A DNA stretch of 64,000 bases. It comes from Nitrosopumilus sp. Its GTDB lineage: Archaea > Thermoproteota > Nitrososphaeria > Nitrososphaerales > Nitrosopumilaceae. Below the pieces are notes generated by a model. That model did no database searches and had not been told where the DNA came from. It saw only the letters and a program-made list of their open reading frames with translations. The stretch spans positions 800,001-864,000 of the forward strand of contig CBDBGZ010000009.1 in the NCBI GenBank assembly GCA_965205425.1. The letters run 5' to 3'. Positions 1 to 31,028 of the stretch are shown here, one piece after another. How positions within the stretch are numbered: position 1 is the stretch's first letter; every line of letters starts with the position of its first letter. Both the position numbers and the translations under genes were made by a program.

Positions 1-2551
1 ATGATGTAGAAGTAAGTTCAATAATATTTTCAATTTTTGAAGAAACTGTTCTATTTGGTTTAATTTTTGATAATAAAGACATCCATTGAGGTTTAAATTT
101 CTCCCAAGAGTTTAAACCTCTATAATCATATTGAATTAATCCTAATCTTTCTAAGGAAAGTCTAAGTCTATTTGCATTTTCAAATAATATTTTAGTTTTA
201 AATTCTTCTCTGGATCGATCAAATGATTCAAAATTAAATGAATACCATTCTTCTTCTATAGTTTCTATCACAATTTCCTGAAATCTATCAAAACCAATGG
301 GCTCTTTTTCTAACAGAATAATTTCATTCAATTTTTGACTCATCAATTGTTTTATTGCAGTATCTTCATGAGCAAAATCTAACCAACCTGCAAGTTCTGC
401 CGCATCTTGTCTGCTATCAGTAAAAGTCAAAAATTTTCTATTTTCAACATGATCATATATCATATTGAAAAGATTTACAGTTGCTTGTTTTTCTGCCATA
501 TTAAATTTAGTTACAGCCCAACCACTACCATAACTATAATGACAAAATGGACAATCTCTTGGTCTCCAACTTGATGTTACATCTGATTTTGGAGGATATG
601 TCTCAATTAGAATTAGATTTTCTGAATTACAAATATTTTCATGAATATTGTTTATACAAACTGATGATGATATAGGCGAAAAACTTCCACAATCAAGACA
701 TTTCTTATATTTTCTAATTTTATGATCAACTTCTTCATCTTCTTCTTCAACTTCATTATTTTTAATCATTGAATACCATAATTCATCACTATCATTTTCT
801 GACTCATCAAATGATATTCGTTTAATTGGGTTTGGTTCTTCTGGTTGTTGATTTTCTGCAAGTTCTAATATTTTATTTCTTTCAGGAACGTTTAATCCAT
901 CTTCTAAGTCAGATTTGCTAACTTTTGAAACATAAAATTCATGTGAGCAATTTCTACAAACTCCTAATTCTTCTACAATTTTTTTACATTCATCACATTT
1001 TTCTTTATTTACAAAAAAGATTTTACTGCATTTTGGATTAGTACACATGAAAATTGGGGGTAATACTCTAAAGAAATTATGTATGCTTACTCTGAGTAAA
1101 GGTTCATCCAAATTTTGTGATGGATTTTTTGCTATACTTCCAGCTTTGAGGTAACTCCAGATCAAATCATCCAAAACTAAAGCATTTTCTGAATTTTTTA
1201 CTTTTGAAGAAATTATTTGTTCATTTTTTAATAATTTTTGAATTTCTTCTACGGAACGTGGTTCATCTAATTTTTTGATTAAAAATTGGAATAATTCATT
1301 CTGTAAAAGAATTTTTCCCAGAAATTTTCTTTTATCTTCTACAATTCCTTGATTGGAGCCTATGATAGAATTTTGTAATTTTATAAAATTTTCATCAGAA
1401 AAATTTTTCTCTAATTTATCGTCTATATTTAGTGGTTCAAGTTTATCAATTTGTTTTGTTGCTGGTAGTTCCCAAGGTTTTCTTTCACCTTCAAAAACAT
1501 CATCATTGGAAAATGTTACTCCGAATAATTTTTTTGCAAATTTTGCAATTTCTTGCTTACGCTCAGTAGGGTTTTTTGATTTTGACATAGTTGCACTTGT
1601 TCCAATGCACAAAAATTCAAGATTGTTAGGAGTAACAAAATCTAATCTACGTTTTAATCTTCTAAGAAGTAATGATACGTCTACACCTCTTGCTCCTTCA
1701 TATGTATGCATTTCATCTAAAATCAAATACTTGACTTTGTTATTTTCAAATAATGGAATATCTGAAGGTCGTAAAAGAATCCTATCTAACATAACATAAC
1801 TTGTAATTAGAATATCTGGAGGATTATCTCTTAATTCTTCTCTTGTTAATAATTGAAAATCTAATTCTACCTCTTTTTCTTCATTACAACGAAGAATACA
1901 ATTTGGATTTGAAGGTGTTTTTTCTACTACAAGAGAATCTTTCTTACAGTTTGGACATTGAAATTCTACATCTAATTTTGGATCTAATTTATTCCCACGA
2001 TATGCAGTTTCAGGAGTTGCACCATTGTATATTCCAAAAGTAATTTTTTTTAATCCTTTACTGTCTCTAATTTTATTTAATTTAAAAAGATAATCTCGTA
2101 ATCTAGTTACTTGATCTCCAGCTAAAGCATTCATGGGATAAACTATAATTGCTTTAATTCCTTCTACATTTGCTTTTGAACAAGTATCTAAAACTGGAAT
2201 TAAAAATGACTCTGTTTTTCCTGAACCAGTACCTGATGAAACAATTGTATTTTTTTCATTAAGAATAATATTTTTAATTGCCAGTTCTTGATGCTTGAAG
2301 AAATTTTCTACTCCAACAGCAGTTAGAACATCTTTATCAATATCTGCATCAGCCATTAATTCATAATCTTTTTGACCATGAAGATAATTTTGAGTGATTG
2401 AGATAAATGGAGATTTCCAAAGTCTATTATTGTTCTTTAATTCATCTAGTTTTTTAGCTAATTCTTTATTTCCTAATGCAAAGTTTGCTTTGTAAAAATC
2501 AACATAATTCTGTTGAATTTCTTTAGTTGCAGATAATGGATTAGTAATCAT
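1..2551 (-). CDS. Large SF2 DEAD/DEAH-box helicase with Zn-finger insertions (YprA/DruE/DUF1998-like), 3' end outside window
   Basis: Not in the ORF track; translated by hand from ATG at 2551 (ATGA overlap with the upstream cas4 stop, GGAG RBS): MITNPLSATKEIQQNY...; motifs SGTGSGKTESF, YPMNALAGDQ, LDEMHTYEGARG, GTSAT, FTDSRQDAAE and several CxxC pairs; open to position 1. Confidence 0.88.
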   Translation of the reverse strand, partial: MITNPLSATKEIQQNYVDFYKANFALGNKELAKKLDELKNNNRLWKSPFISITQNYLHGQKDYELMADADIDKDVLTAVGVENFFKHQELAIKNIILNEKNTIVSSGTGSGKTESFLIPVLDTCSKANVEGIKAIIVYPMNALAGDQVTRLRDYLFKLNKIRDSKGLKKITFGIYNGATPETAYRGNKLDPKLDVEFQCPNCKKDSLVVEKTPSNPNCILRCNEEKEVELDFQLLTREELRDNPPDILITSYVMLDRILLRPSDIPLFENNKVKYLILDEMHTYEGARGVDVSLLLRRLKRRLDFVTPNNLEFLCIGTSATMSKSKNPTERKQEIAKFAKKLFGVTFSNDDVFEGERKPWELPATKQIDKLEPLNIDDKLEKNFSDENFIKLQNSIIGSNQGIVEDKRKFLGKILLQNELFQFLIKKLDEPRSVEEIQKLLKNEQIISSKVKNSENALVLDDLIWSYLKAGSIAKNPSQNLDEPLLRVSIHNFFRVLPPIFMCTNPKCSKIFFVNKEKCDECKKIVEELGVCRNCSHEFYVSKVSKSDLEDGLNVPERNKILELAENQQPEEPNPIKRISFDESENDSDELWYSMIKNNEVEEEDEEVDHKIRKYKKCLDCGSFSPISSSVCINNIHENICNSENLILIETYPPKSDVTSSWRPRDCPFCHYSYGSGWAVTKFNMAEKQATVNLFNMIYDHVENRKFLTFTDSRQDAAELAGWLDFAHEDTAIKQLMSQKLNEIILLEKEPIGFDRFQEIVIETIEEEWYSFNFESFDRSREEFKTKILFENANRLRLSLERLGLIQYDYRGLNSWEKFKPQWMSLLSKIKPNRTVSSKIENIIELTSTS

Positions 2552-3285
2552 ATGATTGTCTCCTTTTTTGAGGTATTTAATGAAGATCCCTGAATATTAT
2601 TTATGATATTATTACTTTCATCTGGATTACATTGATTTAGAAATTTACAAAAATAACATAATTTTGAAAATTCTTTTTTAGGTGGATTTTTCTCTAACAG
2701 GGATTTTTCTAGTTCAAGAATTCTATCTTTTAACCACCATGTCTTATCCTCATTTTTTATTTGAAATGCAATCATGTCATTAAGATCAGCGTAAACAAGA
2801 ATTAAACGACTAACAGGGATAATATTTGAAAATATTGTTCCATAACATTGAATTTGTAAAATATCTTCTTTTTTAGGAATAGTTCCTTCTTCTGCTTGTG
2901 AATAGACATCTTTTGTAGTTTTTAGATCAATGATTGTTCTAGTTTTCCAATCATACATGTCTAGTCTACCTGAAATTGTTCTTAATTTCCCATTACCAAG
3001 TGGAATTTGAAAATCCATATCCAATTCATTCCAGTTGTATGCTGAAGTCATTTGATGTAATAGATCACCTCTTACTGTAGGCCACAAATTATCAAGTGTT
3101 TTTCTTGATTTTCTCTTCATCTTAGTTTTTTCATAATATGATTTTCTAAGGCAGCGAATTATCTCAGTTACTCCATATGATAGAGTTTTGTCATTTCTGA
3201 AAATCCCTGACTTTTTTTCTAAAAATGATGTAATCCCATCAGGAATGTCAACCTGCATGAATTGTTTGTTTTTTTCTTTTTGCAT
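2548..3285 (-). CDS. cas4: Cas4-like PD-(D/E)XK nuclease, copy 1 (solo, no CRISPR array)
   Basis: N-terminal Cys (IRCLRKSYY), GDLLH, GRLD...IIDLKT, QIQCY, C-terminal CYFCKFLNQC Fe-S ligands. Confidence 0.82.
   Translation of the reverse strand: MQKEKNKQFMQVDIPDGITSFLEKKSGIFRNDKTLSYGVTEIIRCLRKSYYEKTKMKRKSRKTLDNLWPTVRGDLLHQMTSAYNWNELDMDFQIPLGNGKLRTISGRLDMYDWKTRTIIDLKTTKDVYSQAEEGTIPKKEDILQIQCYGTIFSNIIPVSRLILVYADLNDMIAFQIKNEDKTWWLKDRILELEKSLLEKNPPKKEFSKLCYFCKFLNQCNPDESNNIINNIQGSSLNTSKKETII
2911..2964. repeat. 54-bp inverted repeat, left copy (inside cas4 copy 1)
   Basis: Reverse complement matches 4803-4856 at 53/54 nt. Confidence 0.95.
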
Positions 3286-3321
3286 ACATTACATTACAGT
3301 ATCTTTCTTATCAAATAATTA

Positions 3322-3334
3322 TTGTATAATACAA
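3322..3334. promoter_or_regulatory. Palindromic operator candidate TTGTAT-A-ATACAA upstream of the cas4-1/helicase operon
   Basis: Perfect 6+1+6 palindrome, identical to 4263-4275. Confidence 0.65.
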
Positions 3335-3346
3335 AAAATATTTGTA

Positions 3347-4246
3347 TTAAATTATATCTCCGATAGCCTCAGGATTTGCCGCATGAAGGTGACCAAAATC
3401 TGTCAATTCTATAAAAGTACTTTTTCTATCGGTTTTACCTGATTTTGTTTTCTCAATTCCTTTTACTCTTACAATTAATCCAGCGTCTTCGAGTTTATTC
3501 AAATGAAAATTAAGTAATGTTGTTGTAATTGGTCTAAATTCAACTTTCTTTTTGAATTTTCCAGTTTTTTTATATTTACTAGTTTTAGAGTCTTTTTCCT
3601 TTTCTGCCTTTAATTTTTCAGTTGGCATTCCTTCTTTATCAAAACTTTTTAATAATTTTGTTCTACTAACAGGTGGATTTAATTCCCAAATTCTTGCTAA
3701 TATACGTGAAGTAGTACTTTCAGTAGAACCTGAAATTGTATTTCTACTCTTTACTCTAGGTGGAACAGGTAATTCTATTACTAGTTCTTTTCCTTTTGCT
3801 TCATGGTATTGTAACACATAGTACATTTTGGTTTGTGCAAGATAAGCAGAGCATGCAGCTCCTGCAACCATTGCCTTTGTGCCACCAGTTAAGTTAATCG
3901 CAAAATCCTTTCCTTGTAATTTTGCATTTTTCTTTTTCTCTTTGCTGATAATTCCCTGAATTTCACGGATTACATCATATGTATCATATTTTCCAACCTT
4001 AACTAATTCCACTTGAATTTCAAACTCTTTTACAATTTCTCTTCTTAATTTTTCAGCATTGTCTTTATATTGTTGAGTTTTTAGATGATCTTTTTCTTTT
4101 CCTTTGGCTTTTTCTAAAGCATCTTCAAATTCTGATTTTGTTTTTTCATTTTCAGTATGTAAAATGTATATCTTATCTGGTGGATTTTTTCGTAATCCTT
4201 CTTTAACAACAATTTGAGTATCTCCAACTGTGGCTATTTGTATCAT
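3347..4246 (-). CDS. CARF-domain + winged-HTH regulator (Csa3-like)
   Basis: N-terminal Rossmann-like IATVG, KIYILHT, CARF motif INLTGGTK; C-terminal wHTH (LLNFHLNKLEDAGLI...IELTDFG). Confidence 0.8.
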   Translation of the reverse strand: MIQIATVGDTQIVVKEGLRKNPPDKIYILHTENEKTKSEFEDALEKAKGKEKDHLKTQQYKDNAEKLRREIVKEFEIQVELVKVGKYDTYDVIREIQGIISKEKKKNAKLQGKDFAINLTGGTKAMVAGAACSAYLAQTKMYYVLQYHEAKGKELVIELPVPPRVKSRNTISGSTESTTSRILARIWELNPPVSRTKLLKSFDKEGMPTEKLKAEKEKDSKTSKYKKTGKFKKKVEFRPITTTLLNFHLNKLEDAGLIVRVKGIEKTKSGKTDRKSTFIELTDFGHLHAANPEAIGDII

Positions 4247-4262
4247 ATAGTAAAAATAATAT

Positions 4263-4275
4263 TTGTATAATACAA
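4263..4275. promoter_or_regulatory. Palindromic operator candidate TTGTATAATACAA in the divergent CARF / cas4-2 promoter region
   Basis: Exact copy of 3322-3334; an 11/13 variant TTGTATGAAACAA lies at 4308-4320. Confidence 0.65.
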
Positions 4276-4311
4276 TATAAAGTCTTCATCATTCAGGCAC
4301 TATTCTATTGT

Positions 4312-4455
4312 ATGAAACAAAAGATTTCAAAACTAATGGGTGACGACCATATCGTCAAGCAATTTGCTGAAAATACTAGACCTCTAAATCTAGTTCAAGC
4401 TTTTCTTTATGCTTGTTTTGGAGGATTCTCAGTTAGAGAAATTCTAGAGGTGTAG
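4312..4455 (+). CDS. Small hypothetical protein (47 aa)
   Basis: Hand-translated MKQKISKLMGDDHIVKQFAENTRPLNLVQAFLYACFGGFSVREILEV*; fills the gap before cas4-2 and contains its GAGGTG RBS. Confidence 0.5.
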   Translation: MKQKISKLMGDDHIVKQFAENTRPLNLVQAFLYACFGGFSVREILEV

Positions 4456-4460
4456 CGAAA

Positions 4461-5207
4461 TTGAGTACTATTACTAAAGAAAAAATACCTAGTCTTACTG
4501 AAGAAATTGATACTCCTGAAGGTATAGTCAACTTTTTACAAAAAAGAAATGGATTATACTCTAAGGATTATACTTCAAGATATTCTGTAACTGAACTAGT
4601 TGGTTGTCAAAGAAAGTCTTTGTACAAACAACAAGAAGTATCTCAAGAAGAATTACTTGCAGATACAACTCTTGAAAGTATGTGGGCAACTGTTCGTGGT
4701 GATTTCCTACACAACATGACATATGCATACAAATGACGTGAGATGGATATTGAGCATTACATACCATTAGACAATGGTAAAGTAGCAACACTTGCAGGAA
4801 GGCTAGACATGTATGATTGGAAAACTAAAACAATCATTGATCTAAAAACTACAAAATTTGTTAGATGGCAAATAAAGCAAGGATTTTTGCCAAAACCTGA
4901 ACACATTCTTCAATTACAATGCTATGATACAATGTTTTCAGAATATGTGCCAGTAGAGAATCTAAACATTGTATATGCTGACATGTCTGATATTGTAACC
5001 TACAAGGTAGAAAAAAGAGACTTGACTGATTGGATAAAGACTAGAATCCAAGAAATTGAAACTGCTAAAACAGATAGTGTAATTCCAAATGGTGAAGTAT
5101 CTGGTTTATGCAAGTTTTGTAGGTATCAAACTAGATGTTCAGAGGCAGGAAATGGATTAACTGACAAACCATTATCTACTCCAAAACCAAATGAGGAATC
5201 TTCATGA
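4461..5207 (+). pseudogene. cas4: Cas4-like nuclease copy 2, interrupted by one in-frame TGA (4734-4736)
   Basis: ORFs 4461-4736 and 4743-5207 are in the same frame; AYK*REMD aligns with AYNWNELD of copy 1; retains GCQRKS, GDFLH, GRLD..DLKT, QLQCY, CKFCRYQTRC. Confidence 0.85.
4803..4856. repeat. 54-bp inverted repeat, right copy (inside cas4 copy 2)
   Basis: CTAGACATGTATGATTGGAAAACTAAAACAATCATTGATCTAAAAACTACAAAA; one mismatch to the reverse complement of 2911-2964. Confidence 0.95.
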
Positions 5208-5302
5208 ATTGTGAATCACCATTTCATGATTGTTGGATTTTGTTATTTGGAGAGTGCAAAAAATGTTATTCAGATGTGTATCAATCTAAAATATTCAACT
5301 GA
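5204..5302 (+). CDS. Cys-rich micro-ORF (32 aa)
   Basis: ATGA overlap with the cas4-2 stop; MNCESPFHDCWILLFGECKKCYSDVYQSKIFN*. Confidence 0.4.
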   Translation: MNCESPFHDCWILLFGECKKCYSDVYQSKIFN

Positions 5303-5357
5303 GAAATATTGTTCAGGTAACAAAGATTACCAGAATTTATGCCTAGAATCAAGTTCT

Positions 5358-5720
5358 AACCATTAATTGTAGAATTAGAAATGATTTCAAACCTAACTAA
5401 ATCCAAAAAATCACTAAAAATCTAGGTTGATACCCAAGAGAAAAGTAGTTCCTACTATTGTAGAAAACTAACTAAGATAGTTCCTCAACTCATACCTAAT
5501 TTTATAACATAATTTTGGAGAAAATCTAGGTTGATACCCAATCAGATAGTTTCGAACCATTAATTGTAGGAAACAAAACATTTTCGTTCCAGGATAAATC
5601 CCACAAATCCAATAAAATCTAGGTGTATACTCCCTGTAAAGATAGAAAATGATTACGGCTGTAAATCTCCACGTCATTAAGAGAAACTTAACATCCCTAA
5701 CCTCTAGGTGCGTATGGGGA
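5358..5720. repeat. Interleaved direct-repeat tract, candidate iteron-type origin
   Basis: AAAATCTAGGTTGATACCCAA at 5417 and 5521; TCTAGGT core at 5421/5525/5618/5703; AACCATTAATTGTAG at 5358 and 5555; ATTGTAG also at 5457. Confidence 0.75.
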
Positions 5721-5783
5721 ATTGAAAGAATTTATCAAAACACCGTACCAAAACTAGTTGTCAAGGTTATCAAAGTGGTCTAA

Positions 5784-7148
5784 TTACCCAGATTTCATTA
5801 GACTACCTTGACTACTTCGACCACTTGTATCAATTCCATACTTTACTGCAAATGCAGTGATCAAATCTTTTGACAACACATAACTTGTAATTTTATGATA
5901 TTTGTTATTTTTTGAGACATAGTTGTGCTTCTTTTTTGCATGAAAGGTTTGCTCAAGAATACTTGCCAATTTATTCATAGTTATTTTTGTTCCAAATTCA
6001 TCAGGATAAAAAGTTCTTTGTGATTGATCTAATGTACCTGGCAGGTCAAGATTGTCATGAATGATAAGATTCCACAAATCAAGTGCTTTAATTTGATAAT
6101 TTTTATCAAGGTTTGATGAAATGATTTGAAAGAGTTTTGCAACTATGCTATTCTTTATTCCTTCTTGACGTTGTGATATATAGAATTGTGCAACCTGATT
6201 TGCTTTATCAAAGTATTTTGTATCAATAGTAGTAGAAATAAAATCATCCCACAACTCAGCATCTCTATTTTTTAATTTTGAATTAATGGGTGTAGGTATT
6301 TGCATTATGTTCTGTAATTTCCATACAAGTAGTTTGTTTCGTAACTGTTGAAGTGATTTCTTTTCTTCTGATGAAAGTTTCTTTATGTTTCCTTTAGGAA
6401 TACCTGACATCATATGAATGACGGCTAATCGTTCAACAAACCCTTTATCATTTGGAATTTTTTCTCCTGCAAACCATTTTTGACAAAATGTCTTGTAGAA
6501 AACTTGGTGTTTTCCTAGTGAATCTGTGCCTAAAATTCGTGCTTTTTTGGAACCTTTAGAATATGAACTCTTGTACATACGTAATTTTTCAGAGTTTGGA
6601 TGTAAACCTTGAGCCTCATCTTCAGCAATTGTTCCACATGCTTCTTCATCTTTTCCAAGAAAATTATACACATCAGCAGATGGAATGTCTTCACCTAGAT
6701 GACATCTATAACATAACCATGAAGCTAGATGAAGAATTGTGCTTTTACCAGATTCAGTATCACCTACACTAAATGGAAAGTGTAGTGTAGTAACCCATTC
6801 TTGACAATAACTTAACAAAATATCAATTTGAATTAGATGTCTTGTTAAATCATCAGTTACAACATATTTGTCAACCTGTGATTTTATTTCATCTAGTATC
6901 TTTTCTTTTGATATTGGTGTATTGATATAATCTAGTTCATCTTCAGTAAATGAATATGGAACATAACCACATTGGGATTCTTTGAGGGGTTTAACAAGAC
7001 CATCATATAGAATTGATTCCCTTACAACAAGTTTGTTTTCTGTTTTCTCATATGCAAGAAATTTTGGTTTCCCATTTACTAAAATTGATTCTACAAAGAA
7101 ATCACTTACATGACCTTTTGTCTTGGTTTGAGTAACTTGTTCAGACAT
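5784..7148 (-). CDS. P-loop NTPase, probable MGE replication helicase
   Basis: Walker A GDTESGKST, Walker B TIAEDEA, Arg-finger-like GFVERLAVI; downstream of an RHH gene string. Confidence 0.65.
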   Translation of the reverse strand: MSEQVTQTKTKGHVSDFFVESILVNGKPKFLAYEKTENKLVVRESILYDGLVKPLKESQCGYVPYSFTEDELDYINTPISKEKILDEIKSQVDKYVVTDDLTRHLIQIDILLSYCQEWVTTLHFPFSVGDTESGKSTILHLASWLCYRCHLGEDIPSADVYNFLGKDEEACGTIAEDEAQGLHPNSEKLRMYKSSYSKGSKKARILGTDSLGKHQVFYKTFCQKWFAGEKIPNDKGFVERLAVIHMMSGIPKGNIKKLSSEEKKSLQQLRNKLLVWKLQNIMQIPTPINSKLKNRDAELWDDFISTTIDTKYFDKANQVAQFYISQRQEGIKNSIVAKLFQIISSNLDKNYQIKALDLWNLIIHDNLDLPGTLDQSQRTFYPDEFGTKITMNKLASILEQTFHAKKKHNYVSKNNKYHKITSYVLSKDLITAFAVKYGIDTSGRSSQGSLMKSG

Positions 7149-7335
7149 TATTTTTCTCCTTTAATTTTGGACCTAGGAGAATCAATCGATTCTTTTCAAG
7201 AATGACTTTAAACTCTGGAGTTTTTCCAAACAATTCAATCCATTTTATATCAAAAGAAAGGAGAAGATGTTCATCCCACATTATCGGTGTAATAGTTGCA
7301 ATCTTAGTCATATCGCTTGTACCACCACATATCAC
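7141..7335 (-). CDS. Small hypothetical protein
   Basis: Overlaps neighbours in an operon-like chain. Confidence 0.5.
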   Translation of the reverse strand: MICGGTSDMTKIATITPIMWDEHLLLSFDIKWIELFGKTPEFKVILEKNRLILLGPKLKEKNNV

Positions 7336-7456
7336 ATGTGTTTATGTGATCCATCAATTCATTGAGTAATTCATCATAGGTATTTCCAAGAAATCCAAAC
7401 TTTCGTAGTCTTTCTTTTGTTGGTTTTCTGACTGCAATTGTAGATTTATCGCTCAT
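7304..7456 (-). CDS. RHH/antitoxin-like DNA-binding protein
   Basis: MSDKSTIAVRKPTKERLRKFG...TYDELLNELMD; start moved to ATG at 7456. Confidence 0.6.
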   Translation of the reverse strand: MSDKSTIAVRKPTKERLRKFGFLGNTYDELLNELMDHINTCDMWWYKRYD

Positions 7457-7652
7457 GTGGATCATCCTTCTTTTTGCTAGAATCAGTTGGGACTTTACCA
7501 TCTTGATTCTCTATCATTCTTTGAAGATACTTACTTCTAGGAATGTCCTTTCTGGCCTCATCGATTTGTCTAATCTGGTTTTTTGGAAGACAAATTGTTA
7601 TGCGTGACTGAGGCTGTTTTTTATGATTTTTCTCATTTTTCTTAATCATCAT
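7446..7652 (-). CDS. CopG/RHH-family regulator
   Basis: RITICLPKNQIRQIDEARKDIPRSKYLQRMIE ribbon-helix-helix pattern. Confidence 0.7.
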   Translation of the reverse strand: MMIKKNEKNHKKQPQSRITICLPKNQIRQIDEARKDIPRSKYLQRMIENQDGKVPTDSSKKKDDPHER

Positions 7653-7818
7653 ATACTAGTAAACCAAAAAATGAGTGGGTGTATCTGGAATTGAGTGAAA
7701 AAATTTTCTTCTTACTCAATCTGAAAGTCAAAAAATAGATTACATTATACCTGTTGTAGATTATTTTATTGACTACAAAGAAGCTAGTATTCCAGAATTA
7801 GAACAGAAACTTGGAATT

Positions 7819-8466
7819 TTGAGAAAAAGTTTGGAAAGAACAATCAAACAATTAATTAACTTAGAATTAATTAAAATAAAAGAAATACAAGATAGAGGTA
7901 GAAGAAATTATTCTTATAAATCAAAAAATAAACTAAAACAATACAGGAAATTTTTGAGTAAAGAATATGATAGAAAATTTACAGGTTTAGAAATATTTGA
8001 AGAGAAGCGATTTAAAAAGAAGATAGATCATATTTGGTCAAAAATTATTAAAAAAATACATCATAATTCTACAAAATATAATAGATTTAACAGAAATAAT
8101 CTGAGAAAAAAATTTAAAATCAAATCAGCTAAATTACAGAAAAAAATCACAAAAATTCAATGGCCTAACGAAATTTCCATTAGAGATATAAAATATCATC
8201 ATGCAAAAAAAATTCAAAGAGATTATGGTGAAGGACGTATTTGTAATGTTTGTTTGAATGAAGATAGAATTTTAGATTATTTTAAAACAAATTATATGGA
8301 TTCTCAATTATTTTGTTCAAAGGGACATATTCTAAAAATTCCTCAAACACCTGAAACATTTATGGATTCATTACAAGTGAGTGATTCAGAAAAACAAATT
8401 TGGAACAATATGCTAAAATCAAAAAAAATTAATAAATACAAAAAGAATCATTTTCGCTTTCGATAA
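7819..8466 (+). CDS. Basic wHTH protein with C-terminal Zn-binding motif; start uncertain
   Basis: Frame is open back to 7699 and gives ASIPELEQKLGILRKSLERTIKQL (HTH); CNVC...CSKGH. Confidence 0.55.
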   Translation: MRKSLERTIKQLINLELIKIKEIQDRGRRNYSYKSKNKLKQYRKFLSKEYDRKFTGLEIFEEKRFKKKIDHIWSKIIKKIHHNSTKYNRFNRNNLRKKFKIKSAKLQKKITKIQWPNEISIRDIKYHHAKKIQRDYGEGRICNVCLNEDRILDYFKTNYMDSQLFCSKGHILKIPQTPETFMDSLQVSDSEKQIWNNMLKSKKINKYKKNHFRFR

Positions 8467-8591
8467 ATTTTCACTAATTCTGCAATAACATCATCCATTG
8501 AGGTAAATTCACCTGATTTGGATTGAATTTGGCCCTGAATCTTCAGCATTTCCTTGTGATTCTCGTCTGAGATACGGAGGGTTTTGACCAT
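8448..8591 (-). CDS. VapB/RHH-like small DNA-binding protein
   Basis: MVKTLRISDENHKEMLKIQG...SMDDVIAELV; start moved to ATG at 8591. Confidence 0.7.
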   Translation of the reverse strand: MVKTLRISDENHKEMLKIQGQIQSKSGEFTSMDDVIAELVKIYRKRK

Positions 8592-8767
8592 AATGTGGAT
8601 TCGATATATGCTGTATATAGAAGATACTTGAACTCTTTGAATAAACCACTTGTGCCTGTTTTTGGCATTTTTAAGGAAAAAATCCATTGAAAATTGATCG
8701 GCTAGAATGAAAAAGTAAAAATTCTTAAACCTGACACCGTTTTTACAGTTACAGGCGATCATATAGT

Positions 8768-9193
8768 ATGCAAATATCAATAAATGAACAAAAAATCAAT
8801 CAATTGGAAAAATCCGTTTTAACTTTACTCTATTTTACAAAAGATCATAAAATTCAAAGATACAATAGATTACAATTAGCACTTTACCATATGAAAGATG
8901 ATTTCCTTCCTTCATTTCAATTCAAGTCTAGCAACAAATGGGGACCAGCAGATGAAGAAATTAGAAACCTTCTTAATTTGTTATGTGGCGAAATCGATTC
9001 TGAAATTAGGAGACAACATGGAATACCTTATCTGATATACAATCTTACATCAAATGGCATGTGTCGCGCAGAACAACTTGTATCTGAATTATCTGAAAAA
9101 CAATTATCAATTTTAAAAAATATTTCAAATTGTGTCAACACTCACTATGATGAAATTTCCTTAAGACCATTAATTTCATGCTTAAATAACTAG
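8768..9193 (+). CDS. YwgA/Panacea(SocA)-like wHTH protein, putative antitoxin
   Basis: RLQLALY...FQF....WGPAD..I...L..L...Y.LT..G pattern. Confidence 0.6.
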   Translation: MQISINEQKINQLEKSVLTLLYFTKDHKIQRYNRLQLALYHMKDDFLPSFQFKSSNKWGPADEEIRNLLNLLCGEIDSEIRRQHGIPYLIYNLTSNGMCRAEQLVSELSEKQLSILKNISNCVNTHYDEISLRPLISCLNN

Positions 9194-9202
9194 GACTACA
9201 CT

Positions 9203-10582
9203 ATGGTTGTTTCATATGGTAGTATTCTTATTGCAAGAATAAACCGAAATCCTCCATTTGTTAAAAAATTACTTTCCCGACTCTTCAAAACACCAGTTCA
9301 ATTCGTTGATAATCATGAATTTGTTTTTCATGTAAAATTTCCTGGAACTCATAACGAAGAGTTCCCACAACAATTAAAATCAAAATCCTCAAAACAATTT
9401 TTTGAAGTAAGACTCTGCTGGCATGGTTTTATCTTAATTAAATTTGAAAATAACACTGAATTAAATGACGATGAAAAACAATCACTTATTACCACAATTT
9501 ATGATTTTATAGAATTTCATATTCAAAGTGAAGAGGATTTATTTGAATATGATCTTACCATAACTCCAAAAGATGAAAGAAAAATATTTCCAACTAAAAC
9601 ATTTAAAGAAATAATTTTTGATAACACATCAGATTCGCAATTAATTCTTTCAAGTGTAAAAAACTTTGGAACAATTGTTAATCGATCATTACAAAAAAAC
9701 TTCAATGAACATAATGCCACTGTTTCTAATTCTATCAGAAAAAATTACGCACATACCATTCTATTGTCATTTATGATCTCACGAAGTCAATACTTGAGAC
9801 AATTTTACGCCTCAAAACGTTGTACTATAGTTCAAAATCCCCCTGTTTTTGATCAAATAACAAATGAATATGGCAATGTGATTACCGCCAACCGTGAAAT
9901 ATTTGATGTATTGGTAGATCCTAATCAAAAATTTGTGATTGAATCATCCCAAAAGGATCAGGTATCGGTAATTTCAATGGACATTGTTGGATTTAGTAAG
10001 AGTATTTCTCAAGATGGAGGTTCATCAATACAGGAACAAATTGATCAATTTAACCTGCTTTCTAAATGGATTTTTGATTGGCTAAGAGCAAAAAAAAGAT
10101 CGACCAGTCTACCAAAACCTGGAAATTCTGTATCGACCTCAAATTTCTGGATTAAATGTGTTGGTGATGGATATATTATCGCATTCAAGGATTTTGAGGA
10201 TGCGTTGAATTTGGCCAAATATCTCCAATCTAAAGAAAAACAAAAAGATCTTCCTCTTAGAGTTGGATTGGATCATGGAACGGTGCAATCTGTAAATGAT
10301 AGCGTGGGGAGGGAAGATTTGATTGGTTCAGCAATTACGTTGGCCGTTCGTATCATGTCTCAAGCTAATGAAGGAAACATATATTCTGCAAAATCATACG
10401 TACAAAAACTAAATGACGACAATGGTGCAAATTTTGTTAGTGGTGAAGATTTAGGAGTTCATCATGTTAAACATAAAATTCCATTAGAATTCTTTAATAT
10501 TTTTGATGATAACTGTGGAAATCCAATTCATCATAAATTTGATGATGAAGAACGAAAAAATTCCCCCTGCCCTAATTATTGA
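9203..10582 (+). CDS. Class III adenylate/guanylate cyclase-domain protein with unknown N-terminal domain
   Basis: SMDIVGFSK, KCVGDGYI, LRVGLDHG, DLIGSAITLAVRIMS. Confidence 0.82.
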   Translation: MVVSYGSILIARINRNPPFVKKLLSRLFKTPVQFVDNHEFVFHVKFPGTHNEEFPQQLKSKSSKQFFEVRLCWHGFILIKFENNTELNDDEKQSLITTIYDFIEFHIQSEEDLFEYDLTITPKDERKIFPTKTFKEIIFDNTSDSQLILSSVKNFGTIVNRSLQKNFNEHNATVSNSIRKNYAHTILLSFMISRSQYLRQFYASKRCTIVQNPPVFDQITNEYGNVITANREIFDVLVDPNQKFVIESSQKDQVSVISMDIVGFSKSISQDGGSSIQEQIDQFNLLSKWIFDWLRAKKRSTSLPKPGNSVSTSNFWIKCVGDGYIIAFKDFEDALNLAKYLQSKEKQKDLPLRVGLDHGTVQSVNDSVGREDLIGSAITLAVRIMSQANEGNIYSAKSYVQKLNDDNGANFVSGEDLGVHHVKHKIPLEFFNIFDDNCGNPIHHKFDDEERKNSPCPNY

Positions 10583-10680
10583 TTATTTTTTTGATGTTGC
10601 CTTTTTCACATCTAGATTGAATCCATAATGATGATTTTTTTAAAAATGTGTTTTATTAACACGATTTAGTAACTGTTATT

Positions 10681-10998
10681 GTGAGTGATGAACTAGATCC
10701 TAGAATTGCAGGTGTAATAGGAGGTATAATCTTAATTATAATTTCTTTCATAATTCAAGATGAACGTGCACAAGCAGAAGAATATGTAAATAAAATCAAA
10801 GAAATTCCCTATCAAATAGACGCATGTAATGGAAATGTAGAATGTGAAAAAAATCTTGAACGAGTTTTAAGAACATATCAATCTGGTTTGAATACTATAG
10901 AACTTGCAAATTCAATTAAAACATTATTTTTCTGGTTTGGATTATTAGTTCTGGTGTCTCGATATTCACTCTATGGAAAGGAAATAACTAGTAAATGA
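10681..10998 (+). CDS. Small two-TM membrane protein
   Basis: Hydrophobic segments at both ends, helical loop with two Cys. Confidence 0.6.
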   Translation: MSDELDPRIAGVIGGIILIIISFIIQDERAQAEEYVNKIKEIPYQIDACNGNVECEKNLERVLRTYQSGLNTIELANSIKTLFFWFGLLVLVSRYSLYGKEITSK

Positions 10999-11071
10999 GC
11001 CTAAATTCTGATTTCTATACAGTATTTTTCTAATAGAAACCACTTTATCTTAAAATGATTTTTTTAAAATT

Positions 11072-11872
11072 GTGGATTTCAAAAACAAAGTTGTTCTCAT
11101 AACAGGTGCATCATCAGGAATTGGTAAAGAATCTGCTATAGAATTTGCAAAAAAAGGTGCCGACATAGTTCTAGTTTCAAGAACAAAAGAAAAGCTTGAA
11201 CAAGTTGCAGATGAATTAAAAAAATTCAATGTTACTACTATTACTTGTCAATGTGATGTATCTAAAAAAGATCAAGTTAAAGAAATGTCAAAAATAGTTT
11301 TAGAGAAATTTAATTCAGTTGATATTTTAGTAAATAACGCAGGTTTTGCAATCTATGGATCTGTATCTGATTTGAGTATTGATGATATAGAATCACAAAT
11401 GGAAACAAATTATTTTGGAATGATTTACTGCATCAAAAATTTTCTTCCATCAATGTTGGATAAAAAATCAGGTCACATAGTTAATGTTGCATCAGTAGCT
11501 GCAAGTTTTGGTTTACCCGGAATTGCCTCATATTGTGCATCAAAATTTGCAATGTTGGGTTTTTCAGAAGGACTAAAACATGAATTAAAAAATACTGGAG
11601 TTGGAATTACAATAGTTAGCCCTATTATGGTTAGGACAAATTTCTTTGAACATCCATCATTTGAAAAAATACCAAAATTTTCTCCAACTTCACTTAGTTC
11701 TAAAACCGTTGCAAAAGCAATTCTAAAGGCTGCAAATTCCCCTAGATTAGAAATTATAGTTCCATCTATAGTTAGAGGTGCAGTTTGGTTCAAAAACACA
11801 TTTCCATATTTAATTAATCCAATTATGGGAAAAGCTTTCAAAAAACAATTAGATTCTATGAAAAAAGATTAA
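11072..11872 (+). CDS. Short-chain dehydrogenase/reductase
   Basis: TGASSGIG, NNAG, YCASK. Confidence 0.93.
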   Translation: MDFKNKVVLITGASSGIGKESAIEFAKKGADIVLVSRTKEKLEQVADELKKFNVTTITCQCDVSKKDQVKEMSKIVLEKFNSVDILVNNAGFAIYGSVSDLSIDDIESQMETNYFGMIYCIKNFLPSMLDKKSGHIVNVASVAASFGLPGIASYCASKFAMLGFSEGLKHELKNTGVGITIVSPIMVRTNFFEHPSFEKIPKFSPTSLSSKTVAKAILKAANSPRLEIIVPSIVRGAVWFKNTFPYLINPIMGKAFKKQLDSMKKD

Positions 11873-12276
11873 TCTTCTTCTGAAACATCATCTGTAGATT
11901 CACCATTAGAGCCTACATCTAACAATTCTAAAGATTTCAAATCAAATTGGTAAATTGCTTTCATATCAATTTCTTTTTCTTTTTCAAGAAATTCTGATAC
12001 TTTTTTACTTAATGGAGCTTTATGTTGATCAAATACAAATTCATAAACTTCACCTTTTAGTAAATCATCAATCTTTACTTTTTTTGGAACATCCATAGTT
12101 ACTATATGTCGTCCATCTTCTACTGCATCATACAATTGAACATCAATCTTGTTGTCCTCATAATAGAATTCTAAAATGTAACCTTGTTTTTTTTGTTCTT
12201 CAGGTTTCTTAAATTTAGCATTTTGAATTTCATCAGTAACCCATTCAGGAATTTCATCTTCTTTCTTTTTTACCAT
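11869..12276 (-). CDS. Hypothetical protein
   Basis: Acidic 135-aa ORF with host-like composition, tightly packed. Confidence 0.75.
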   Translation of the reverse strand: MVKKKEDEIPEWVTDEIQNAKFKKPEEQKKQGYILEFYYEDNKIDVQLYDAVEDGRHIVTMDVPKKVKIDDLLKGEVYEFVFDQHKAPLSKKVSEFLEKEKEIDMKAIYQFDLKSLELLDVGSNGESTDDVSEED

Positions 12277-28314: not shown

Positions 28315-28982
28315 TTTGAAGGGTGGGCAGAAGCTCAGCCAAAGAAGAGGAGAAGATGAAAGTGGGTTCGATATGAAAGGACATATTCAAACTCCATGTG
28401 GCATACTGACTGGAAGAAGCTAGACGATGGCAGGTGGTTTCTGTGTTACCAGGATGACACATCAAGGTTTATCGTCTCTCATGGAGTGTTTGCAGAAGCT
28501 ACTACAGATAACGCACTTGTGGTATTACATGAGGCAATTGCAAAGCACGGTAGGCCTGCATCAATTCTAACTGATCATGGCTCCCAGTTTTATGCAAACC
28601 AATCAGAATACAAGAGAAAAGGAGCATCCCAGTTTGAGCAGGAACTGGTAAAATTAGAGATAAAGCATATCATGGCAAGAGTGAACCATCCTCAAACCAA
28701 TGGAAAGTTAGAAAGATTTCACGGCGAGATTCAGAGAAAGCAGAAATGGTTTGGTACCATTGATGAGCTGGTCCACTGGTACAATCACATAAAGCCACAC
28801 ATGTCACTTGACTGGGATAATCTTGAGACCCCTGTAAAGGCATATGCAAGAAAGATGCCAGAGAAAGGAACAAGAGTTATTGATGAGCAGACAGGAGAAG
28901 AATACGATGTCAAATAAGGGACGAACTGATTTTGGGATACAACAATAATTTCCGGAAAAGATACTGATTTTGGGATACAACA
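28315..28982 (+). mobile_element. IS481-family transposase remnant (5'-truncated, in-frame TGA at 28357) with duplicated right end
   Basis: rve core WHTD, DD.SR, TDHGSQF, HPQTNGKLERF, YN..KPH.SL; ACTGATTTTGGGATACAACA at 28925 and 28963. Confidence 0.85.
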
Positions 28983-30043: not shown

Positions 30044-31028
30044 ATGGACATCACAAATGACGAGTTACTCCAGGTCTACAAAAAAGAAAAAAATATTCAC
30101 AAAAAAACAAGATTACATGCAATGTGCATTATTAAAATCAACGAATCCACAATTGCTGAAACTGTAAGCCAAATGTTTTGTACATGCAATTCTGTAATGA
30201 ACTGGCTTGATTCATTTGAAAAATATGGATTGGAGGACCCCCCCTCGTTCTGGCCGTCCGCCATTAATCTCACATAAAACATTACAAAAAATAGAGCGTA
30301 CATTTAAGAGAATTTCAGACGGCATGACTCCAAAGAAACTGATACAATTCATATTTTACAGAACACGCATTACATAGCAAATCACTCATGTGCGTCGTTT
30401 GATGCACAAATGGAATCTAAAACCAAAGGTTCGACAAAAGGTACATGTGCGAGCAGCATCCAAGTATACATGCCGCAAGTGGAATAGTCGCATCATTTCA
30501 CGCGTAGAAAAGGCAAAAAAGAATGGTTTTACAGTATTCATCCAAGACGAATCAGTATTTGTAGACGATGTGCGTCTTGGCAAAAAATACTGGACAGATG
30601 CACACCAAAGAATGATTGTACGTTGGAGAGGATCGCACCAAAGATTTTTGGTTTATGGAAATGATGATAATCAAAGTTTTTTTAGATCGTATGAAAAATT
30701 TAATTCAATTGCATTTATGGATTATTTGGAGGCAGCTCGTAAAAAATTTGGAAAAATATTTGTTATTGTTGATAGGGCACCGCAACACAAAGCTAATGAT
30801 GTGAAAAAATATTTGCACAAAAACAAAGATGTCAAACTGGCATATCTTCTGAGAGGCTCCCCGCATTTGAGTATGATTGAAGAGGTTTGGAGACAGTGCA
30901 AACATGTTAATGTTGAATCAGAATTTTATGAATCTATTCATGAGATGAGACATACAGTTATGGAATATTTTAGAACGCACAAATTTAATTTGAATATGTA
31001 TCAGTATTTTGCAAGAACAGTAAATTGA
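30044..31028 (+). mobile_element. IS630-family transposase, frameshifted/degraded
   Basis: HTH fragment 30044-30277; DDE part FIQDES, IVDRAPQH, SPHLSMIEEVW. Confidence 0.85.

Follow-up and report, generated by a model that had tools for sequence, protein, structure and literature searches.

How have two nuclease genes that diverged long ago come to share a stretch of 54 nucleotides almost to the letter? The question is raised by a 64-kb stretch of a Nitrosopumilus genome (G000:C9:800001-864000; G000 denotes this genome, and the whole stretch is called the window), in which an integrated mobile element of this marine ammonia-oxidizing archaeon, a thaumarchaeon, carries two Cas4-like paralogues, cas4-1 and cas4-2. 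The shared stretch, here termed the block, is an inverted repeat with one copy in each gene. A comparison of seven related elements makes it probable that the block is the footprint of recurrent short-tract gene conversion between ancient Cas4-like paralogues, with occasional crossovers as a by-product.

The block and the genes that carry it

The first copy of the block (2911..2964, minus strand) lies in cas4-1 and encodes LDMYDWKTRTIIDLKTTK, from the catalytic Asp through the Asp-x-Lys motif; the second copy (4803..4856, plus strand) lies in cas4-2. When the reverse complement of 2911-2964 was compared with 4803-4856 by script, 53/54 nt were identical. Both copies are in frame (product LDMYDWKT[R/K]TIIDLKTTK), and the lone mismatch, AGA (Arg) versus AAA (Lys), is central, so that the longest exact run common to the two copies in G000 measures 28 nt. 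A general repeat search (1-12000; 2400-5400) had missed the pair, though it reported many weaker ones. No third copy of the block is present in the 2.2-Mb, 9-contig genome at up to 8 substitutions.

The codon alignment of the two genes sets the block apart from its surroundings. Overall, cas4-1 and cas4-2 are identical at 109/240 residues and 426/720 nt, which corresponds to 45% of the protein and 59% of the DNA. When the comparison is restricted to identical residues, with Met and Trp left out, the codons of the G000 pair differ at 0/15 positions in the block versus 43/89 outside it (binomial probability 5e-5; Fisher's exact p 3e-4). The original prediction, made from the letters of the window, had claimed an inverted in-frame match that includes every synonymous site, which the script and the codon alignment agree upon; it had also listed differing codons for conserved residues in the flanks (GGT AGA versus GGA AGG, and ACA GTA AGA versus ACT GTT CGT), which are seen in the same alignment.

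A family profile matches the solved Cas4 chain 4ic1_A (E 2.4e-4), placing GRLD opposite GRAD and IIDLKTTK opposite VIEIKTSR; a preceding single-sequence search of solved structures had given nothing useful. The block is therefore predicted to encode the catalytic core (GRLD...DLK) of a Cas4-like nuclease and, within the PD-(D/E)XK fold, takes in what we regard as the catalytic Asp together with the (D/E)xK motif. The pair also shows the hallmarks of Cas4, which are RecB-like nuclease motifs and a four-cysteine cluster (C45, C210, C213, and C219, invariant in alignment A1). The Cas4-like genes match Cas4 in PADLOC (E 2.9e-12, for cas4-1, and 2.3e-13), and those to DruK are weak matches (5.9e-4 and 2.3e-5). 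In Pfam, cas4-1 falls just short of the cut-offs of PF01930 (22.3 bits; cut-off 22.7) and PF12705 (21.5; cut-off 22), and the C-terminal part of cas4-2 is likewise below the former (22.3 bits) and above the latter (30.5). Neither cas1 nor cas2 nor a CRISPR array is present among the annotated genes of G000:C9:784-812 kb, no genome-wide search for CRISPR-Cas having been made.

The two genes differ in state and in affiliation. The gene cas4-1 (2548..3285, minus strand) encodes an intact Cas4-like PD-(D/E)XK nuclease of 245 aa and lies directly upstream of a giant DruE-like helicase gene. Its orthologues (75-87% identity) adjoin the helicase in 6/6 other elements, and cas4-1 is the nuclease of the defense cassette itself. 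Orthologues of cas4-2 (80-88% identity) are single-copy in other genomes of the family, which identifies cas4-2 as a gene of the element backbone. In G000, cas4-2 (4461..5207, plus strand) is a pseudogene with open reading frames (ORFs) of 91 aa and 154 aa. An in-frame TGA (4734..4736, plus strand) stands where cas4-1 and 8/8 orthologues compared have Trp (YAYKWREMD). Recoding of this codon as Trp was considered and rejected, because the eight orthologues have TGG and the terminal TGA of the gene itself is a normal stop; the alignment identifies it as a nonsense mutation. The single cas4-2 orthologue of G195 (L014/L024, G195:C1:882745-883441) is frameshifted a few codons past the position of this TGA, so that the gene has been inactivated a second time, independently.

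Exchange between co-resident copies

The seven elements compared are that of G000, one from a single-cell genome (Marine Group I thaumarchaeote SCGC AAA799-D11, in the following D11; loci L018/L028, genome G395), and five metagenome contigs (L030-L034). Both paralogues are present in 7/7 elements, and in each of them, the helicase is adjoined by a gene that is of the cas4-1 type throughout. In samples of 301 and 401 genomes from the family, only G000 and D11 possess both paralogues. The copies are inverted in 6/7 elements, with spacers of 1704-1875 bp between the blocks (computed from the block positions); in D11 (L028), they are in direct orientation and about 10.4 kb apart.

Within the block, paralogues from the same element resemble each other far more than chance pairing would allow. 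Co-resident copies differ at one position in G000, L030, L033, and L034, at two in L032, at three in L031, and at five in D11, the least homogenized element. These differences sum to 14, versus a mean of 30.1 when the pairing is permuted, and a sum of 14 or less is reached in 2/5040 permutations. No effect of co-residence is seen in the 90 nt that flank the block on each side (3760/5040 and 2882/5040 permutations). At identical residues, codons of the block differ in 13/111 cases within elements versus 191/666 between elements (Fisher p 1e-4); elsewhere in the gene, the codon difference between paralogues is saturated at about 0.48-0.49. Between orthologues, the block varies by 2-8 nt, so that co-resident paralogues are as close to each other there as orthologues are, or closer.

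The strongest evidence for repeated exchange comes from synonymous variants that are private to a single element. Five such variants, distributed over 4/7 elements, occur in both co-resident copies and are absent from the other 12 sequences: ATT in L030, GAT in L032, ACT in L033, and ACC at two codons in L034. Since each of the four elements has its own variants in both copies, at least four independent events are indicated. In G000, cas4-1 carries variants of the cas4-2 family (CTA, AAA), and in L030, cas4-2 carries variants typical of cas4-1 (TTA, AAG), which suggests that transfer ran in both directions. These findings lend strong support to the original prediction of recent gene conversion or recurrent recombination, and show the recombination to be recurrent across independent element lineages.

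A plausible course of events begins with selection on the protein. Purifying selection on the catalytic core (GRLD...DLK) would have kept the block more alike in DNA than any other part of the two genes, and for this reason, the block would be the only site at which strand exchange can start. Non-reciprocal homologous recombination between paralogues in opposite orientation, 1.7-1.9 kb apart, would then have copied the block in both directions and independently in several lineages. Host recombination of the RadA type presumably provides the machinery, and the diverged flanks would end the conversion tract after about 54-60 nt, the limits being set by heterology. Were a crossover to occur in the block, the spacer would be inverted and the 5' halves of the genes exchanged; this probably takes place now and then as a by-product, rather than as a programmed switch with a recombinase of its own. 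The whole process is most probably one of ordinary concerted evolution, perhaps accompanied by an inversion polymorphism.

Recombination in thaumarchaea has, to our knowledge, scarcely been measured so far. The cas4 pair offers a natural example of thaumarchaeal homologous recombination that acts on a patch of about 54 nt between genes otherwise 59% identical, repeated independently in the set of seven elements. It also provides a cue for annotation: where synonymous sites are perfectly identical over a short island at a catalytic motif, this points to paralogues having undergone conversion.

Inversion, codon constraint, and assembly as alternatives

A crossover between the two copies in G000 would invert a spacer of 1838 bp (2965..4802), which comprises both cas4 5' halves, the gene of a CARF winged helix-turn-helix (CARF-wHTH) regulator (3347..4246, minus strand), a small ORF directly upstream of cas4-2 (orf47; 4312..4455, plus strand), and both intergenic control regions. 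The geometry given in the original prediction (about 1.84 kb with the CARF gene, both promoters, and both 5' halves) is correct. The block might therefore be a working inverton that is independent of a recombinase and reversibly flips the spacer of 1.7-1.9 kb in natural populations. A flip would swap the N-terminal halves of the nucleases together with their promoters and would place the helicase operon behind the promoter of orf47 and cas4-2, and the usefulness of the switch would maintain the identity of the block. We regard this explanation as unlikely, but it accounts for several observations and has precedents in inverted hsdS systems with comparable short repeats, which are reported to switch (PMC7394358, PMC7672463, PMC6620402).

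The best evidence for a flip consists of chimeric proteins. When 159 cluster representatives of homologues were split at the block and the halves were classified by cas4 type, 30 were of the cas4-1 type and 112 of the cas4-2 type in both halves; 12 were ambiguous, three were unclassifiable, and two were clear chimeras. Both chimeras stem from public metagenome protein sets: P0034 combines the N-terminal half of cas4-1 with the C-terminal half of cas4-2, and P0036 represents the reverse. Each is an intact ORF that keeps the catalytic and Cys residues and has its breakpoint inside the block (alignment A1), as predicted for the two reciprocal products of an inversion. The clusters comprise 10 (P0034) and 6 (P0036) members, and 9/9 full-length members tested are chimeric. 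The halves can be traced to the lineage of element L034, which P0126 matches at 105/105 residues of the cas4-1 N-terminal half and 121/121 residues of the cas4-2 C-terminal half, and P0131 at 109/109 and 117/119 residues. The parental form of this lineage is also present, in L034 itself and in the clusters P0023 (27 members) and P0074 (184 members).

Yet chimeras account for only 2/159 cluster representatives and are confined to this one lineage, which has an exact repeat of 56 nt. One widely used metagenome assembler works with k-mers of up to 55. Since the repeat is at or above this length, a mis-join is a possible source of the chimeras, and where a repeat is inverted, the sequence that results from a mis-join is identical to that of a real inversion. 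When either chimera served as the query of a protein search, no further chimeric cluster was recovered; the 301 and 401 genomes sampled from the family contain no chimeric gene, and a search of viral contigs with P0034 gave no match. The chances that the chimeras are real are about even. The chimeric Cas4 proteins of the original prediction thus have counterparts in metagenomes, as intact ORFs of both reciprocal kinds, which may nevertheless be errors of assembly at the 56-nt repeat.

The loci themselves argue against frequent flipping. The arrangement is parental in 7/7 loci with DNA context, and the check for both orientations in G000 and its relatives returned the flipped arrangement in 0/7. 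No strand-changing joint is listed in the contigs of public runs that hold this DNA, a comparison in which rare orientations are not detectable. As the original prediction had stated, no invertase is encoded in the window: no recombinase family was identified among the genes between or beside the blocks, nor among 54 further ORFs of the window, where the search met only with fragments of insertion sequences (ISs). The nearest recombinase is the tyrosine integrase of the element (G000:C9:786672-787814; PF00589), about 16 kb away. In G000, moreover, a flip would place the nonsense codon of cas4-2 before a helicase gene that is already broken. The stop-bearing cas4-2 and the helicase gene, which is split by an IS66-family element, look inactivated as judged from their reading frames; together they mark the locus as decaying, so that any switch in G000 would be a relic. 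With seven of seven loci parental, no strand-changing joint, and no invertase, the shufflon or phase-variation-like switch that had been proposed is not demonstrated.

Contigs from two of the public runs deserve separate mention. The contigs of runs X5 and X6 match the window exactly and break at 2955/2984 (X5) and 2984 (X6). Position 2984 lies 20 nt past the block; from there on, the X6 contig has a different sequence, a hint of another variant in which the 5' half of a cas4 gene changes close to the block.

Inversion at short repeats has nevertheless occurred in this element family on a larger scale. The cassette that extends from the CARF gene over cas4-1, the giant helicase gene, and a gene of the 476-aa type to a methyltransferase gene measures 11-15 kb and is flanked by inverted repeats of about 110 bp in all six elements that show both ends. 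These repeats consist of the 5' end of gene X (G000:C9:788724-789170) and that of orf47, each with its upstream region. In G000, the right repeat is located at 4245..4358 and its partner outside the window (G000:C9:789124-789237); in D11, they occupy L028 3954-4060 and 15214-15320. The identity of the two repeats is 82% in G000, 74% in D11, 77% in L031, 80% in L032, 89% in L033, and 97% in L034. The CARF gene is adjoined by orf47 and cas4-2 in 6/7 elements and by gene X in D11. The cassette of D11 is therefore reversed relative to the other six, and at least one inversion at short repeats has taken place in the element family. An inversion of 15 kb unique to G000 was considered and rejected, because the orientation in G000 is the common one (6/7) and D11 is the odd one out.

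Inversion of the larger cassette at other repeats speaks for a switch at the block, as does the location of both control regions, which have a palindrome in common, within the spacer. Taken further, such a switch would re-wire a Druantia-like operon from CARF control to a promoter of the backbone, and the nested repeats of about 110 bp would toggle the blocks between an inverted, flip-competent state and a direct, deletion-prone state; this extended scenario is speculative and improbable.

Recurrent gene conversion remains the preferred explanation of the block, and several points have to be held against it. The link between orientation and homogenization is drawn from a single element, D11, and the seven elements are few and phylogenetically non-independent. 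The difference in the block between the two families across elements (0.287) is no larger than that among orthologues (0.26-0.29). The block is conserved also in single-copy cas4-2 genes, and synonymous differences within each family are lower in the block (0.26-0.29) than in the rest of the gene (0.35-0.40), so that constraint at the codon level may add to the likeness beside exchange. Finally, intact reciprocal chimeras exist, with all nine full-length members tested being chimeric, and crossovers may thus be more than rare accidents.

The low synonymous difference within families would also be expected if the block had been kept identical by selection on its nucleotides, acting on codon choice, an RNA element, or a protein-binding site, with no recombination at all. 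In agreement with such selection, uncommon codons (GAC, ATC, CTA) are kept in orthologues of several genera, including single-copy genes. A fixed optimum, however, cannot yield synonymous variants that are private to an element and common to both of its copies, and the effect of co-residence would be left without an explanation, which renders nucleotide-level selection very unlikely as the sole cause. That the identity is an artefact of assembly or consensus, one of the outcomes that the original prediction had named as a refutation, is hardly credible: assemblers can collapse short repeats, but the copies in G000 keep their central mismatch and have no exact run above 28 nt, the pattern recurs in seven assemblies of different sources, and contigs of two further public metagenome runs reproduce the window with 0 differences (over 4563-5159 and 2733-2984).

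The surrounding element and known counterparts

The element comprises the integrase, gene X, three IS elements, and the minus-strand cassette with the CARF-wHTH, cas4-1, and giant helicase genes. No tRNA gene was found at the integrase end (G000:C9:784001-800000 searched). The CARF-wHTH regulator (299 aa) matches HFX_2341_N (1.9e-10) and Cas_APE2256 (1.1e-5) in Pfam and CARF3 in PADLOC (3.8e-25). The product of orf47 has no family in Pfam; those related elements that have orf47 conserve it at 56-91% identity, and its first 15 codons are similar to the beginning of gene X. The near-palindrome TTGTATAATACAA is found upstream of cas4-1 (3322..3334) and between the CARF gene and orf47 (4263..4275). 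These are its only two sites in the window, where 0.49 are expected by chance, and their number is reached in 0/100 shuffles; the CARF-wHTH protein may use TTGTATAATACAA as its operator. A scan for sigma-70 promoters was disregarded, because the model is inapplicable to an archaeon.

The helicase is DruE-like and belongs to the YprA family. The 5' part of its gene (1..2551, minus strand) extends beyond the window, where the IS66-family element (G000:C9:797396-798834), which encodes an IS66 transposase and has terminal inverted repeats of 39 bp (797396-797434, 798798-798834), splits it into parts of 1249 aa and 727 aa. The intact orthologue in L028 is a single ORF of 2072 aa that matches DruE1 of PADLOC (3e-147) and the Pfam domains DEAD, Helicase_C, and MZB (the MrfA zinc-binding domain). 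Downstream of the helicase gene follow a gene whose product has no identified family and a gene for an N6/N4-type DNA methyltransferase. The former is a single ORF of 476 aa in D11 (L028 11975-13405), which has no PADLOC family match; in G000 (G000:C9:793524-795001), it is represented by two ORFs (286 aa and 137 aa) with about 200 bp between them and may be broken there, too. The methyltransferase has 68 matches in PADLOC, and the best 25 of these are to models of MTase_II and PglX and do not include DruM. With respect to Druantia, the cassette includes a DruE with the DUF1998/MrfA module, and none of the partner genes DruA-D, DruM/F/G, or DruH is represented among these matches.

Other features of the window lie farther from the cas4 pair. 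The non-coding stretch between cas4-2 and the gene of a 454-aa P-loop protein without Pfam or PADLOC family contains three direct repeats (5354-5640; core AAAATCTAGGTTGATACCCAA) spaced 104 and 93 nt, which could be iterons or the origin of the element. Also within the element, a few kb from the CARF regulator gene, 9203-10582 encodes a protein of 459 aa that carries the catalytic domain of adenylate/guanylate cyclases (PF00211, 7.3e-8). The window's chromosomal part contains fragments of transposase genes with rve and DDE_3 domains (28396-28914 and 30390-31025), which, together with the three IS elements of the island, suggest an IS-rich genome.

A literature search returned no earlier account of this cas4 pair, nor of Druantia in Nitrosopumilus. 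PMC3396285, considered as a precedent for gene conversion of Cas4, contains the phrase only in its reference list. A thaumarchaeal casposon is described as encoding two Cas4 homologues that most resemble clostridial ones (PMC6563490). Cas4 itself (4ic1_A) and the stand-alone Cas4-like genes found on archaeal mobile elements are among the closest counterparts. The cas4 pair shares the PD-(D/E)XK core and the four conserved Cys with Cas4 but differs in that its PF01930 scores fall just below the cut-off and in that the cassette, which is Druantia-like, harbors one copy and the backbone of the element harbors the other.

If the chimeras are real, a mobile element could shuffle nuclease halves and change the promoter of a Druantia-like operon without a dedicated invertase, and the idea of the inverton would extend to archaeal defense islands. 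Intragenic invertons (bioRxiv 10.1101/2023.03.11.532203) resemble the block in that inverted repeats lie in coding sequence and inversion recodes proteins; as described there, they are enzyme-mediated and detected from reads, whereas the cas4 repeat spans two genes and is read from assemblies. The closest known switch appears to be of the inverted hsdS type, in which inverted repeats likewise lie within paralogous genes of a defense locus and recombination swaps their halves to yield chimeric proteins; the title of one of the three hsdS papers cited above speaks of recombination independent of all known site-specific recombinases. The hsdS systems are reported to show both orientations within clonal populations and to exchange halves of different specificities, whereas the cas4 block, which also has no adjacent invertase, is known here from assembled sequence and would exchange halves of a nuclease fold that are not known to play a part in specificity.

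Judged by analogy, the closest known case is the concerted evolution of tufA and tufB in Salmonella and Escherichia coli, inverted genes that are reported to undergo gene conversion and occasional inversion (PMC5485169). Like the cas4 pair, they are paralogues in opposite orientation on one replicon whose co-resident copies are extra alike through non-reciprocal exchange, and crossovers between them invert the intervening DNA without a dedicated recombinase. By contrast, the cas4 genes are 59% identical in DNA, the converted tract of about 54-60 nt coincides with a catalytic motif, and the two genes lie 1.8 kb apart on an archaeal mobile element, where an inversion, instead of only swapping near-identical genes, would create chimeric ones.

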